A stretch of DNA of 64,000 nucleotides, taken from NCBI GenBank assembly GCA_903908715.1, contig CAIVSY010000111.1, positions 58,655-122,654 on the forward strand. The letters are read 5' to 3'. Position 1 is the stretch's first letter. Each line of letters opens with the position of its first letter. Below the pieces are notes generated by a model that saw only the letters and a program-made list of their open reading frames with translations, ran no database searches and was not told the DNA's origin. This document shows positions 37,714 through 44,184 of this stretch, in pieces. Position numbers and translations under genes: made by a program. Source of the DNA: an uncultured bacterium. Lineage in GTDB: Bacteria > Verrucomicrobiota > Kiritimatiellia > CAIKKV01 > CAITUY01.

Positions 37714-39024
37714 TCAGCCTTCAACAACTTGCATGGCAATCCCGGCCCATTCCGTCAGACGAGCCGGATCATATCGTACCGTGCTGATATCCTTGAGAAT
37801 GATCTCCAGAGGACACCCGTGCCTTTGACAGATCGTGCGCGTTGCCAGAAGATCGGCTCTCACCTGGTCCCCATGGAACTGGTCCGTAGCGAGAAAGGCA
37901 GGACTGGGCTTGCGGGAGTACACGAATTCGTCGCGCATTTCCGCTGCCCCGCGCTCCTGATCGACCCACGGGCTCATGGAAACCTTGCGGACGTTCGGAA
38001 TCTTACGCACCTGCGCCATCTTCATGTCCAAGGGTTCACAGCAGCCGTAATAGACCAACCCGAAGCGCCTGGCGATCCGGCTGACATATGTTACCTCGAA
38101 TTCATCGAACATGTCGGGTGAAACCGTACCCAGCATCTGCGCCATGGAGAACATCCAAAGGTCCTTGACCCTCGGGGAATCCGGATTATAGCCGGGCGCC
38201 GGCAGGTCATCCGTATAAGCCCCCGTGCAATGCACTTCATCCTGCGGACCGCAAAGCAATCCCTGCGCCTCCAACTGGTCCAGTTGGCTCAAATATCCAT
38301 CCGTCACACGGGAAAGCAGCTCATGCATCAGTTCCGGGTTGTCTACCATCATGTAAAGGGCATTCTCAACCCCCATCCACATGGAGACGGGGTCCCAGAT
38401 GGTCTTGTAGGACGGATCCGCCCCGGACGCGCGCACTTCCAGCAAGCCATCGAAAAGCTCATGCGCGACCGCCATCTTCTGCTCCGTTTCAGCGGCCTCA
38501 TGCCAGATGCGGGGCATCTTGATCTTCTCAAGATCCTCCATGGTGTTGAACTGGTTCTCGTACTTGTGCCCAACGACGCTGTTTGAGGGATCGCCCACCG
38601 CAATCTCCTCCTGGATCGAAACGCCAAAACCCGTATTGTGGATAACCTTGTGCACGTCAATATAAGACTCCACGACCTTATCCACCGGGAAATGCCGCCA
38701 CTGGTAGAGGGTCTTCCGCAGAATGTCCTCGTAGTAGCGGCAGAAGGAATCCGTGCAACGCAAGGTCAACTCATCGTTGACGTTGATCTCGTTCCAGCAC
38801 ACCTGATCGATCATGACCATCGGACGGACCGGCTTGCGTGCGTTGAGCTTACGCCACATGGCGCGCTTCTCTGCCTGGACAGGCAACGCTGCAATTTCCG
38901 CAACACGGGCCGCCAAGTCGCGTATGATCTTCTTGTCCTGCGCACATATCTTCATGGTGTCCAAACTCTCTCCCATTGCCTGACCCAAGAGGGCACGGTC
39001 TGCCATCGACATGAACCGACGCAA
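37714..39024 (-). CDS. Hypothetical protein (URO-D/MtaA-like fold suspected)
   Basis: 436 aa, natural composition, no TM segment. Weak resemblance to uroporphyrinogen-decarboxylase-family (MtaA/CmuA-type) proteins. Confidence 0.4.
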   Translation of the reverse strand: MRRFMSMADRALLGQAMGESLDTMKICAQDKKIIRDLAARVAEIAALPVQAEKRAMWRKLNARKPVRPMVMIDQVCWNEINVNDELTLRCTDSFCRYYEDILRKTLYQWRHFPVDKVVESYIDVHKVIHNTGFGVSIQEEIAVGDPSNSVVGHKYENQFNTMEDLEKIKMPRIWHEAAETEQKMAVAHELFDGLLEVRASGADPSYKTIWDPVSMWMGVENALYMMVDNPELMHELLSRVTDGYLSQLDQLEAQGLLCGPQDEVHCTGAYTDDLPAPGYNPDSPRVKDLWMFSMAQMLGTVSPDMFDEFEVTYVSRIARRFGLVYYGCCEPLDMKMAQVRKIPNVRKVSMSPWVDQERGAAEMRDEFVYSRKPSPAFLATDQFHGDQVRADLLATRTICQRHGCPLEIILKDISTVRYDPARLTEWAGIAMQVVEG

Positions 39025-39126
39025 AAACTATGGGGTATCACGTCAGGAGTCAACTTCCATCACAACGGCTGCGGAACAACTGCTTTGGGCTTTCCTCTCA
39101 GAGCCGAATGTTCCTATAATGGCCGG

Positions 39127-42100
39127 GTGAAAGCATTGCGTACCCTTGTCATGCTCTTGCTGGCAACCGCCCTCTATTCGGTCCGGCATACCCTGCAAGG
39201 GGATCACACACCCTTATCCCCTACCGCCGGTCCGCATGCCAGTCCCTTGCACGCAGACGCCAGAGGAATCCCAAACGCCCCTCTCCCACCCCCGCAAAAC
39301 GTAACGGGTACAATACCGGCGGCCATGAGCCCTGGTCCAGACCCCACCTCGCAACTTCCGACAGTTGCATCCCGCTTCACACCCATCTCCCCCGCCGGCC
39401 AGTTGACCCGAGTGGTGCGCCTGGTGCGCACGAATACCAAGTACGCCTTCTGGCGTATCGAGGAAATCCGCGGAACGGCATCCGGCCCTACCCCGCCTTC
39501 CACCCGCTCCCGTATGATTGCTGTGGCCGACCACGTGATTGTCCGCACCAAGCCGGGCCTACCGCGGAACACCCTCGCGGCTGTTTGTGCCCGCCACGGC
39601 GCCACCATACGGAAGTCCCTTCACCTGCCTGATCACTACCTTGTTGCCGTTCCAGAGGCCGATCTGGATACACTCCCCAATCTCATGGCCCGCCTGAACA
39701 GCGAAACCTCTTCCATCCTCTACGCCGAACCTGACCATATTGTTTTTGCCACCCAGACCTTTCCCAATGATCCCTCCTTCACCAACCTCTGGGGACTGCA
39801 TAACACAGGACAATCCGGAGGCAAGACAGATGCCGATATCGACGCTCCGGAAGCCTGGGATATCTCCCAGGGGAGCCCGGAAATGATTGTTGGCGTGATC
39901 GATTCCGGCGTGGATCTCTCCCATCCGGACTTGGCCTCGAACATCTGGACTAATCCCATGGAAACGGCGAACGGGCTGGATGATGACGGCAATGGCTATG
40001 TCGACGACCTCAACGGATGGGATTTCCTGACGGAGGACAATTCCCCCAGCGACGCCAATTCACACGGGACTCACTGTGCCGGCACCATTGCGGCCATCGG
40101 CAACAACGACCTTGGGGTCGCCGGGCTGACCTGGCGATGCAAGATCATGCCCCTGCGTTTCCTGGATGCGAGTGGAAGCGGGACCACTTCCGACGCCATG
40201 GAAGCCATTCTCTATGCAACCGACCTGCGGCGCCGCGGCATCCCTATCCGCCTCACCAGCAACAGCTGGGGTGGCGGCGGAGATCTGTCACTTTCCGAAG
40301 CCATCCGTGCCAGTGGCGAAGCGGGCATGCTGTTTGTTGCAGCCGCCGGAAACTCCGGATCCAACAACGACCTTCAGCCTTTCTATCCAGCCAGTTATTC
40401 CTGGGACAATATCATCTCGGTGGCGGCAACAGACCGCCTGGATGAACGCGCAAGCTTTTCCTGTTATGGCGCAAACTCCGTGGATCTGGCTGCGCCCGGC
40501 TCCGACATCTACAGCACGGTACCCGGCGGCTACGGATCGAAGAGCGGCACCTCGATGGCCACCCCGCATGTGGCCGCCCTCGCCGCCCTCCTGTGGAGCG
40601 AACGACCCGAAGCCAGTCCTGCCGAAATCCGCACCCTTCTCTTCTCTACCGTGGATCCGCTGCCCTCGCTCGCCGGGAAAATGGTCACAGGCGGAAGAAT
40701 CAACGCCCGGAAGGCACTCGAGAAGCTTTTCCGGATCACGCATTCCCCCGCCGGAAACCGCATCAATACTGGATCCCCTTACGTCATAACGGCCAGCATA
40801 GCCCCGCCAGCCCTGGCGGATACCAATCAGGTGTGGCTGTACTGGAATCAGGATGAATCCACCAATTTCCTGGCAGTCCCGATGGAGCCGGTCCAGTCAA
40901 ACCTGTTCCAGGCATCCATCCCCACCCAACCGGAAGGGTCCACCATCAGCTACTGGCTGAAGGCTGTATCCCTCTCCGGCTTGACTGCGACGCACCCGTC
41001 CAACGCACCCGGCGCCATTCACCGCTTCACCCTGATGCCATCCGTGACCCTGGAGGTCACCGGAACACCGGGAACCAACGGCCCGGCAAGCCCCGATTAC
41101 GGGCTACACATCCTCCCGTCAAACATGGAAGTAACGGCCACCGCCGTATGGCATACCACCCCACTGCAAGGAGCAAGATGGGCCTGCCTCGGCTGGACCG
41201 GTACAGGCGATACGCCCGAGAGCGGTTCCTCCAATTCCCTGGTCTTCACCCTGGATCATCCCTCAACCCTCGAATGGCGCTGGACCAGGGAATTCGGACT
41301 GGATCAGACCACCCTGGTGGCAGGCGTCCAGGAAACCACAACCTGGTGGCAGGCCGACTCCACAGCCACAACCCTCACCGCACCGGAAAGCCTTGCACGC
41401 CAGGGAACCAACTTCATGTTCGTCTACTGGAATCTGGATGGAGCCCGTCAACCCTCCCCCGAAGAACCAGCCGTGAACCCCATTGCCGGTATCCCAATGG
41501 GAGCGCCACGCAAAGCCTCAGCCCTATATGTATCCGCCGACCTTGACGCCGATGCCGACACCATGCCGGACTGGTGGGAACTGCGGTTCTTCGGCACAAC
41601 CAATGCCGCTCCGGAAAGCGATGACGATGGCGATGGGTTCTCCAACCTGGATGAGTACCGGGATCACACCTCGCCCCGCAGCACCAATGACGCCCCCGTT
41701 CTGCCCCTGATTCTTCATACGCCCTTGGAAGACCCGATGCCCCGCCCTGCCCCGTACACGTTGGAAGCCTATGTGGCCGATAATTTCGATGTGGCCGACG
41801 TTATGCTGTTCTGGATCCGTTCCGGCAATCCTGTGCAATCCATTCCAATGACAGAAGCCCCGGATATCAACCAATATTCAGCCATAATTCCCGCGCCGGG
41901 CACGAACGGAGATGTCCTTGTGTACTGGATCACTGCCAGTGATCCGCTGGGCCAGACCGCCACCAACGGCCCTCACACCGTGCATGTTTCCTATCCCTTG
42001 CTGCAAGTCACCCCTCACGCCTTTTCTCCTGTTGTCGAGCCCCAGACAACCACCAATCAACCCCTCTCCATCAAAAATCTCGGGAATGCCGTACTGGATA

Positions 42101-44184
42101 CCGTCATCCAGGCCATCCACGCCGGCTATTCGAACACTTTCGACTCGAGCGCCGGAGAATGGGTCACAAGCGGAACCGGCGGCCCCTGGAACCTTTCCTC
42201 CAACCGGTTTATCTCGGCACCCCTCGCGTGGTATTGCGGCAATCCCGTCACGCGCCGCTACTCCAGCAGTATGCACGCCCGCCTGGATTCGCCTCCCTTT
42301 TACCTGGGCAGCAATTCTGTCCTCTCCTTCAATCATTGGATCAAGTCGGAACTCGACACTCAGTACGGGCGCTACGGATGGAAACCCAATCATGCATGGG
42401 ACGGCGGCATCGTCGAGATTTCCACCAACAGCGGCGTCGCCTTCCACCAGATCGCTCCGCTCGGCGGATACTCCCACGCCATAACCGGGTGGAGTCAATC
42501 CCCCTGGCCTTCGGAAACCCCATGTTTCGCCGGGTCAGGCGCATGGTCACAGGCGGTCTTCGATCTGGGCGCCTACTCAAGGAAACTCATCATCCTGCGG
42601 TTTCACTTCGGAACGGACTCGAACACCGAGGATGAGGGGTGGTATATCGACAACGTGGTCATCTCCCCCTCTCCATCAACCGAACCATGGCTTTCATGGC
42701 ACCCCACAAACCTCTCGATTCAGGCCTATTCAGGCAGCACTGCCACGATTTCCTTTGCCGCCGGCACGATCCCCACCGGCGACCGCGAGGCCGCACTCGT
42801 GGTAACCTGCAATGACCCTGTCACACCGTCGACAGTCATCCCCATCCATCTACGCGTACGTTCAAAACCCCTGCTCGCCCCCCTGACTGCCGCACAGACC
42901 TCCACCAATGGCGAAGGATGGGTAACCCTGTCCACCTCCGTTCAGGACAAGGATGGCGACCCTTGCTCCATTGAACTGGAATGGACGACCAATAGCAGTT
43001 CATGGGGCAAGGCGTGGATCCGCTCCGCTTCACCCGGCTTCGGATCCGCTTCGACACAAACCTCCACCCCTCCCCAGGTCACCAACATCCTGACGACCGA
43101 CGCAACCCAGATGATTACCAATTCGATTTCGTTAATCTGGGATACATCCACCAATGGGAACAACCTCGGATACACCTCATCGGCACGCATTCGCGCGCGC
43201 CCAATCGACTCCTGGATGTCGGGCACATGGCAGACAAGCGCGCTCCTCACCGTGGATAATGTGGCCCCGCCGGCCGTCCCCCGGTTTACGAATCTCGCGC
43301 AATCCGTGGGAACCTGGTCCCCCGACCCTTCCATGAACCTTTTCTGGCGCCGAGTGACAGACATCGGAACCGGTCTGGCAGGATATCGCATCACAATCCG
43401 GAACAGCACACTGGCGATCCTGAATCAATACGATACCACCGAAACCTCGCTGCGCACACCTTCCCTCCCCGACGGTTCCAACTGGTGGGCATCCGTCTCC
43501 CCGAGGGATCTTCGTGGCAATCTCGGCCCGGCCGTTACGATTGGCCCCTATGCCATGGATACGATGCCGCCATCAGCCACCTCCGCCGTCATCCATCTGG
43601 ATTTTGGCCCCGGCCGGACCTGCCTTGTGGCCTCCGATCATTTTCCAGCCAGCTGGGCGGGATTTTCCGACTCCGGCTCGGGAATCTCCGGGTATTTCTG
43701 CGCTCTGGCCCCAACCCAACCGCTCCCGGCTTCCCCTTGGAACCCTGCGTCAACCGCCATAGTCACCGGCGTTCAAATGGACCTGACCAATGTCGTTCAA
43801 GTGTGGGCAATCGACAAGACCGGATGGATCAGCCCGCCGGCAACCCGTGCCTTCCTGGCTCTTAGTGCAGGCGGGGATTGGGACCGCGACGGCATGCCAA
43901 ACCTGTCCGAAGGCACCGCAGGAACAGACCCCGCCAACTCTTTAAGCCTTCTCCGCCTGGAAACACAGGCTAACCCGGATGGATCCATCACTCTCTCATG
44001 GCCGGCATTCACAAACCGGCTTTACACACTTGCCTGGCATGATACGCTGCTCCCCGCGGACGCTAACTGGCTGCCTCTGACGAATTGTCTTCGAATTTCC
44101 GGCATGGACGGCAGGATGATGCATACCGATCAGGTTCGGACCAACCCCGCCCGTTTCTACCGGTTAACCGTGGAGGAACCATGA
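39127..44184 (+). CDS. Secreted subtilisin-like serine peptidase (S8) with a very large C-terminal multidomain region
   Basis: In-frame GTG 39127 (or ATG 39151) gives signal peptide KALRTLVMLLLATALYS. TATAAT lies 9 nt upstream. S8 triad contexts VIDSGVD, HGTHCAG and GTSMATPHVA. About 1,300 aa of β-rich repeats follow, including a MAM/jelly-roll-like block (GWYIDNVVI). The track ORF starts earlier only because it runs antisense through the upstream gene. Confidence 0.85.
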   Translation: MKALRTLVMLLLATALYSVRHTLQGDHTPLSPTAGPHASPLHADARGIPNAPLPPPQNVTGTIPAAMSPGPDPTSQLPTVASRFTPISPAGQLTRVVRLVRTNTKYAFWRIEEIRGTASGPTPPSTRSRMIAVADHVIVRTKPGLPRNTLAAVCARHGATIRKSLHLPDHYLVAVPEADLDTLPNLMARLNSETSSILYAEPDHIVFATQTFPNDPSFTNLWGLHNTGQSGGKTDADIDAPEAWDISQGSPEMIVGVIDSGVDLSHPDLASNIWTNPMETANGLDDDGNGYVDDLNGWDFLTEDNSPSDANSHGTHCAGTIAAIGNNDLGVAGLTWRCKIMPLRFLDASGSGTTSDAMEAILYATDLRRRGIPIRLTSNSWGGGGDLSLSEAIRASGEAGMLFVAAAGNSGSNNDLQPFYPASYSWDNIISVAATDRLDERASFSCYGANSVDLAAPGSDIYSTVPGGYGSKSGTSMATPHVAALAALLWSERPEASPAEIRTLLFSTVDPLPSLAGKMVTGGRINARKALEKLFRITHSPAGNRINTGSPYVITASIAPPALADTNQVWLYWNQDESTNFLAVPMEPVQSNLFQASIPTQPEGSTISYWLKAVSLSGLTATHPSNAPGAIHRFTLMPSVTLEVTGTPGTNGPASPDYGLHILPSNMEVTATAVWHTTPLQGARWACLGWTGTGDTPESGSSNSLVFTLDHPSTLEWRWTREFGLDQTTLVAGVQETTTWWQADSTATTLTAPESLARQGTNFMFVYWNLDGARQPSPEEPAVNPIAGIPMGAPRKASALYVSADLDADADTMPDWWELRFFGTTNAAPESDDDGDGFSNLDEYRDHTSPRSTNDAPVLPLILHTPLEDPMPRPAPYTLEAYVADNFDVADVMLFWIRSGNPVQSIPMTEAPDINQYSAIIPAPGTNGDVLVYWITASDPLGQTATNGPHTVHVSYPLLQVTPHAFSPVVEPQTTTNQPLSIKNLGNAVLDTVIQAIHAGYSNTFDSSAGEWVTSGTGGPWNLSSNRFISAPLAWYCGNPVTRRYSSSMHARLDSPPFYLGSNSVLSFNHWIKSELDTQYGRYGWKPNHAWDGGIVEISTNSGVAFHQIAPLGGYSHAITGWSQSPWPSETPCFAGSGAWSQAVFDLGAYSRKLIILRFHFGTDSNTEDEGWYIDNVVISPSPSTEPWLSWHPTNLSIQAYSGSTATISFAAGTIPTGDREAALVVTCNDPVTPSTVIPIHLRVRSKPLLAPLTAAQTSTNGEGWVTLSTSVQDKDGDPCSIELEWTTNSSSWGKAWIRSASPGFGSASTQTSTPPQVTNILTTDATQMITNSISLIWDTSTNGNNLGYTSSARIRARPIDSWMSGTWQTSALLTVDNVAPPAVPRFTNLAQSVGTWSPDPSMNLFWRRVTDIGTGLAGYRITIRNSTLAILNQYDTTETSLRTPSLPDGSNWWASVSPRDLRGNLGPAVTIGPYAMDTMPPSATSAVIHLDFGPGRTCLVASDHFPASWAGFSDSGSGISGYFCALAPTQPLPASPWNPASTAIVTGVQMDLTNVVQVWAIDKTGWISPPATRAFLALSAGGDWDRDGMPNLSEGTAGTDPANSLSLLRLETQANPDGSITLSWPAFTNRLYTLAWHDTLLPADANWLPLTNCLRISGMDGRMMHTDQVRTNPARFYRLTVEEP

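Follow-up and report, generated by a model that had tools for sequence, protein, structure and literature searches.

The open reading frame at positions 39127-44184 of the window, which is the whole stretch of 64,000 nucleotides analysed, most plausibly encodes a pre-pro-subtilase of MEROPS S8 subfamily A and of the deseasin/thermitase type, from an uncultured Kiritimatiellia-like PVC bacterium. The protein is fairly likely to be an exported endopeptidase with a binding and spacer tail, its activity being predicted. PVC bacteria commonly possess large subtilases of many domains, and an enzyme of this ordinary kind is not surprising in itself. The exception is its terminal domain, D4, which belongs to an unannotated large family, is found nearly always at the extreme C-terminus of surface or extracellular-type proteins, and is the only lead that we consider worth following.

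The gene is an uninterrupted ORF of 1,685 codons on the plus strand, on which all features described below also lie, and it runs from GTG 39127 to TGA 44182-44184, specifying a protein of 1,685 aa. The frame stays open upstream to 38638, and this upstream part overlaps a divergent gene on the minus strand (37714-39024). An identical protein (P0001) is present on three contigs in public data, with places returned in two samples (ERZ1426820 and ERZ1426664), and its occurrence on independent public contigs argues against a frameshift artefact. A frameshift splitting the ORF, which the original prediction had named as a way in which it could fail, is not borne out, and a pseudo-protease or frameshifted gene is rejected on the intact ORF, the invariant catalytic triad and the identical copies. 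The favoured start is GTG 39127, as suggested by the N-termini of the orthologues, since most full-length members begin with basic residues followed by ~20 hydrophobic residues and a Pro-rich linker. The alternative start ATG 39151 removes the basic n-region, the public gene call begins at Met67 (nt 39325) and leaves out the whole hydrophobic N-terminus, and a hydrophobic N-terminus for Sec-type export exists only with the upstream start. Codon-position GC was not decisive for the choice of start. Promoter and terminator scans returned nothing at either gene end; a TATAAT stands at 39114-39119, with no matching -35 element.

The N-terminal export segment (39127..39201, aa 1-25) consists of the basic residues K2 and R5 followed by the hydrophobic TLVMLLLATALYSV. 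Its hydrophobic stretch is short (14 residues), with no clear cleavage site except a possible ATA-L after residue 15, and the segment may serve as a Sec signal peptide or stay uncleaved as a signal anchor. The signal peptide proposed earlier therefore stands as a hydrophobic export segment, given the GTG start, while a cleaved peptide and an anchor both fit. Were the segment an uncleaved anchor, the enzyme could be a periplasmic or inner-membrane-tethered protease that never crosses the outer membrane. Many orthologues have features that would suit such an arrangement, namely a ~20-residue hydrophobic segment that ends in WW plus a basic residue, has no AXA-type site and is followed by a Pro-rich stalk, and the known outer-membrane targeting tags are absent. 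However, a usual membrane helix would need more than the 14 aa available in the window protein, the mature enzyme would be freed from its anchor once the prodomain is autocleaved, and the domain types of the tail are typical of extracellular proteins, with the D4 tail common to other extracellular-type enzymes. We rate a periplasmic or tethered protease as improbable.

The export segment is followed by a Pro-rich, poorly conserved linker (39202..39408, aa 26-94). Pro accounts for 16% of the residues over aa 1-99, where the orthologues show low identity and many gaps at a like composition. The adjoining prodomain of fervidolysin type (39409..39756, aa 95-210) is marked by weak Pfam Fervidolysin_NPro-like matches, which are found, all at one position, in six of eight members (the window protein and seven orthologues); one member reaches the cut-off, and the window protein, with 17.4 bits against 21, lies below the Pfam threshold. 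Near-invariant residues of this domain include K105, Y106, P107, A134, D135, H136, E201 and P202, and D203 is invariant. Judging from these sequence features, the prodomain is probably an intramolecular chaperone and inhibitor that is autocleaved off. The original prediction did not mention it.

The S8A subtilase catalytic domain (39757..40731, aa 211-535; Pfam PF00082) gives a Peptidase_S8 match over aa 253-509 with E = 3.6e-58 and 197.6 bits against a cut-off of 21.8. The triad is present in the order Asp-His-Ser with the S8 motifs DSG/DTG, HGTH and GTSMA(S/T)P and an oxyanion-hole Asn, and Asp259 (VIDSGVD; 39901-39903), His313 (SHGTH; 40063-40065), the oxyanion residue Asn409 (AAAGN; 40351-40353) and Ser476 (GTSMATPH; 40552-40554) are invariant across 50 aligned sequences. 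His313, the first His of SHGTH, corresponds to His64 of BPN'. In addition, a loop at aa 282-297, rich in Asp, Asn and Gly, is invariant. These results agree with the earlier claim of a complete subtilisin domain with intact D, H and S, through both the S8 profile match and the invariance of the triad and Asn409, and the loss of triad conservation that had been offered as grounds for refutation is not seen in the 50 sequences. The domain looks catalytically competent.

The best PDB match of the catalytic domain is deseasin MCP-01 (3VV3; E = 1.2e-98, 52.5% identity over 322 columns), well ahead of thermitase as the next (1.4e-51), and VIDSGVD, SHGTH, AAAGN and GTSMATPH align with the counterpart motifs of MCP-01. 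This S8A enzyme of Pseudoalteromonas sp. SM9913 is described in the literature as an abundant extracellular collagenolytic protease. Besides the likeness in triad and oxyanion motifs, both proteins are pre-pro-enzymes with C-terminal non-catalytic beta-domains. MCP-01 has ~830 aa and carries a P-proprotein domain and a PKD collagen-binding domain; Pfam finds neither P_proprotein nor PKD in the window protein at E <= 1, and the tail of the window protein differs, comprising ~1,150 aa in modules B1-B6, a MAM domain, TSP3-like linkers and D1-D4. Fervidolysin/pyrolysin-like multi-domain subtilases share the fervidolysin-type prodomain (by weak matches) and beta-sandwiches after the S8 domain, but fervidolysin has two beta-sandwich domains only, and the closest catalytic relatives of the window protein are deseasin and thermitase rather than fervidolysin. 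The same catalytic subfamily also includes giant metagenomic S8 peptidases of Verrucomicrobiota, Planctomycetota and Kiritimatiellota (L001, 3,828 aa; L003, 2,956 aa), which show 41-47% identity and long Ig-like chains. L003 ends in a D4-type domain, like the window protein; the tails of the giants are, however, variable (BACON_2, other Ig/beta-sandwich-type Pfam families, PKD, CARDB-like), whereas that of the window family is fixed.

The tail begins after the catalytic domain, which ends at about aa 535, and extends over ~1,150 aa, so that the long beta-rich tail foreseen in the original prediction is present and its length of ~1,300 aa was an overestimate. AF2 resolves it into a string of ~12 confidently modelled beta-sandwich modules, with pLDDT of 92.4 for aa 536-1250 and 91.1 for aa 1240-1685. 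The first of these beta-sandwiches, B1 (40732..41052, aa 536-642), is homologous to B4 (41701..41991, aa 859-955), which is its duplicate according to AF2 and hhalign (probability 97.4%, E = 1.2e-11). The region B2-B3 (41053..41535, aa 643-803), delimited by AF2 secondary structure, has no Pfam match and carries a conserved CxGWxGxG...WxW motif, with R684, G689, W690, W717, W719, W740 and W768 invariant. It is followed by T1 (41536..41700, aa 804-858), a TSP3-like Asp-rich linker of the sequence DADADTMPDWWE...DDDGDGFSNLDEY, which AF2 models with a pair of short helices and which probably binds Ca. T1 shows a weak NCBIfam Amuc_1099 match at aa 827-858; TSP3_bac is faintly matched in one orthologue (P0024) and is among the precomputed domains of another protein (P0020). 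The second linker of this type, T2 (43867..43944, aa 1581-1606; GDWDRDGMPNLSEGTAGTDP), has a helix at aa 1592-1598 in the model and invariant D1584, D1586, D1588 and E1595, and it aligns with T1 at 92.4% probability in hhalign. Neither linker had been mentioned in the original prediction.

Between the linkers, B4 leads into B5 (41992..42141, aa 956-1005), a short Ig-like strand set that precedes the jelly-roll, and the jelly-roll is followed by B6 (42676..42864, aa 1184-1246), an Ig-like beta-sandwich in the AF2 model. D1 (42865..43260, aa 1247-1378) is Fn3/Ig-like in the model of aa 1240-1685 and is also found in a protein with an unrelated head (P0206). D2 and D3 (43261..43866; aa 1379-1479 and 1480-1580) form an Fn3-like duplicated pair in AF2, aligned by hhalign at 95.4%. 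The repeated modules claimed earlier can thus be specified as three homologous pairs, B1/B4, T1/T2 and D2/D3, with hhalign probabilities of 92-97%. A Foldseek search with the C-terminal model, which contains the four Fn3-like domains D1 to D4, returns tandem FnIII proteins at E of about 1e-11.

The MAM-type jelly-roll (42142..42675, aa 1006-1183) contains the GWYIDNVVI stretch on which the earlier description of a MAM/jelly-roll-like block was based, and it is now identified as an InhA-type MAM domain: the profile PF20773 (InhA-like MAM) matches above its gathering score, and the model has the jelly-roll fold. A single-sequence search of the segment against the PDB gave no match, and a profile search was required. 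NCBIfam matches to M36 peptidases are confined to the MAM region and fall far under their cut-offs (41 against 1,500 and 25.5 against 1,700). The jelly-roll is as conserved as the catalytic domain and is probably, by prediction, a ligand- or substrate-binding module. InhA (peptidase M6; 4YU5) and myxosortase- or rhombosortase-dependent M36 peptidases likewise carry an InhA-type MAM jelly-roll on the C-terminal side of the protease domain of a secreted enzyme, but these are metallopeptidases, whereas the window protein is a serine peptidase of family S8 that has no sortase-type C-terminal tag. The fold furthermore resembles the gingipain adhesin domain and CBMs; the head of gingipain Kgp/HagA of Porphyromonas gingivalis is, in contrast, a cysteine peptidase (C25) rather than S8.

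Such a tail raises the possibility that the protein is chiefly an adhesin or surface-structure protein, whose ~1,150-aa chain attaches to particles, host glycans or cells and whose protease serves mainly for self-maturation, as in gingipain/HagA-type complexes. This would accord with the resemblance of the four C-terminal domains to the FnIII tandems of adhesion molecules and with the TSP3-like linkers, which are typical of adhesins. The catalytic machinery and the substrate-cleft motifs are nonetheless invariant, and the head and the MAM domain are the most conserved parts of the family. Moreover, a short family variant of ~1,300 aa drops D1-D3 and keeps the head, MAM and D4, and therefore the protease and MAM appear to be the core unit. 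A mainly adhesive function is in our estimation improbable. The role of adhesin or foraging exoprotease given in the original prediction would be an inference from domain content, that is, from the deseasin-like head and from the jelly-roll that is like the gingipain adhesin domain and CBMs.

The family comprises ~50 collinear orthologue clusters at 38-56% identity in Kiritimatiellia- and Lentisphaerae-type bacteria, and no domain has been gained or lost among them; 49 homologue clusters keep the architecture almost gap-free from aa 100 onwards. No orthologue was found among the GTDB representatives, where the sole long match is L001, which has a different tail. A literature search on subtilases of Kiritimatiellota, on sorting signals of PVC bacteria and on the RFYRV motif found nothing relevant. 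The family-wide collinear conservation, which had not been mentioned before, is unusual for a scavenging exoenzyme in its strictness over 1,600 aa and could point to a more specific role. One such role would be a housekeeping one, in which the enzyme is a dedicated maturase or sheddase that acts on other proteins of the envelope, for instance D4-tailed ones, instead of scavenging nutrients, with the tail placing it in the envelope beside its clients. An architecture so nearly free of gaps would be expected of a protein that has fixed partners rather than of an exoenzyme subject to shuffling, many proteins with a variety of heads bear a D4 tail, and in one contig the place that the S8 orthologue holds in related contigs is taken by a C25 peptidase with the T2+D4 tail, immediately upstream of a gene that encodes at least 1,664 aa. 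On the other hand, the catalytic domain is nearest to broad-specificity secreted degradative subtilases (deseasin, thermitase, AprV2), paralogous copies lie side by side in one genome (L086), which suggests an expansion typical of degradative enzymes, and no conserved client or partner gene adjoins. Overall, a dedicated maturase seems unlikely.

The gene neighbourhoods lend no support to the predicted function. The neighbours of the protease gene in the window are cytoplasmic metabolic genes, and no operon partner conserved family-wide was seen among the orthologue neighbourhoods examined. The order S8, cupin and Fe-ADH, with overlapping stop and start codons, is restricted to the near clade, and an upstream Pribosyltran gene to the distant clade, while the other orthologue neighbours are unrelated. 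Small outer-membrane-barrel-like genes downstream of distant orthologues show no mutual homology. Genes for type II secretion (GspE, F, K-like, L/M-like and D) are located in the window 16-31 kb upstream, and we know of no sequence signature for type II secretion substrates. Passage of the exported protease over the outer membrane through this window-encoded system is possible.

The terminal beta-sandwich, D4 (43945..44184 including the stop codon, aa 1607-1685), ends in RFYRLTVEEP-COOH. We define the D4 family as a beta-sandwich of ~80 aa in which W, Y, W and G are conserved and the last strand reads R-[FY]-[FY]-R-[VIL]-x-[VIL], the domain ending within a few residues of the C-terminus, often in Pro; the window protein falls within this definition. 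In the alignment A1, W1625, Y1633, G1659 and R1676 are invariant and W1648 is nearly so (>=90%), and all five are invariant in the D4-only alignment A4. Profile searches return at least 4,575 representative clusters at E <= 1e-3, and among 113 proteins whose heads are unrelated, 107 have a last D4 copy that ends at most 7 aa from the C-terminus, with a stereotyped end motif, RFYR[VIL]x[VIL]xxP. D4 is attached to unrelated heads of extracellular type, among them C25 peptidase, GH16-like, beta-helix, LamG+NHL, Ig arrays and MBG giants; the T2+D4 tail is also found on a C25 peptidase, and D1, D3, T2 and D4 occur together on a GH16-like protein. The 64-kb window holds no further D4 or T1 modules, and a word-indexed homology search with the D4 alignment gave two matches only and was uninformative.

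D4 is matched by no Pfam or NCBIfam model. Por_Secre_tail/TIGR04183 gives no match at E <= 10 to 29 D4 sequences, and none at E <= 1 to the whole protein (Pfam, NCBIfam). The gingipain C-terminal domain is a type IX secretion signal; D4 differs in having no Por_Secre_tail match and no similarity to one type IX C-terminal domain example, against which its profile reaches a probability of 0.2% in hhalign. The short motif, transmembrane helix and basic tail that characterise PEP-CTERM, LPXTG, GlyGly-CTERM and myxosortase/rhombosortase tags are absent, and the C-terminus is a beta-strand of a folded domain, with no hydrophobic helix. No known C-terminal tag, be it a type IX C-terminal domain, PEP-CTERM, LPXTG or another, was detected with Pfam, NCBIfam or hhalign. 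The earlier statement that no recognisable sorting tag is present holds for the known tags, but it overlooked the conserved domain that forms the C-terminus and that is widely shared across a large family.

It is tempting to speculate, though we rate it as unlikely, that Verrucomicrobiota, Kiritimatiellia and Lentisphaeria use the T2+D4 module as a C-terminal domain for sorting or anchoring, by which extracellular proteins with varied heads, in numbers from hundreds to thousands, would be marked for outer-membrane passage or attachment, with the machinery still to be found and the window protease as one cargo. Such a module would be functionally analogous to the type IX C-terminal domain of Bacteroidota and unrelated to it in sequence.

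For the exported endopeptidase that we favour, the basic and hydrophobic N-terminus would direct the protein along the Sec route over the cytoplasmic membrane, and the fervidolysin-type prodomain would serve as folding aid and inhibitor before the enzyme itself cuts it off, a step that would at once detach the mature protein from its N-terminal segment. With a mass of ~150 kDa, the mature enzyme would be active beyond the cytoplasm, in all likelihood in the medium or on the cell surface, where it would cleave proteins or glycoproteins as an endopeptidase of broad specificity. Substrate or glycan may be bound by the jelly-roll, the beta-sandwich chain may function as a spacer, perhaps stiffened by Ca2+ at the TSP3-like linkers, and the terminal D4 may hold the enzyme at the cell envelope or direct it there.

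To conclude, the analysis defines a well-conserved family of ~1,700 aa with a deseasin-like head and a MAM module, which also provides a large protease architecture modelled with confidence and could have a part in the turnover of proteins and glycoproteins by Kiritimatiellia living in guts and anoxic sediments. Of more use is the D4 domain: if D4 proves to be a sorting or anchoring signal, the display of the very large surface proteomes of PVC bacteria becomes testable.

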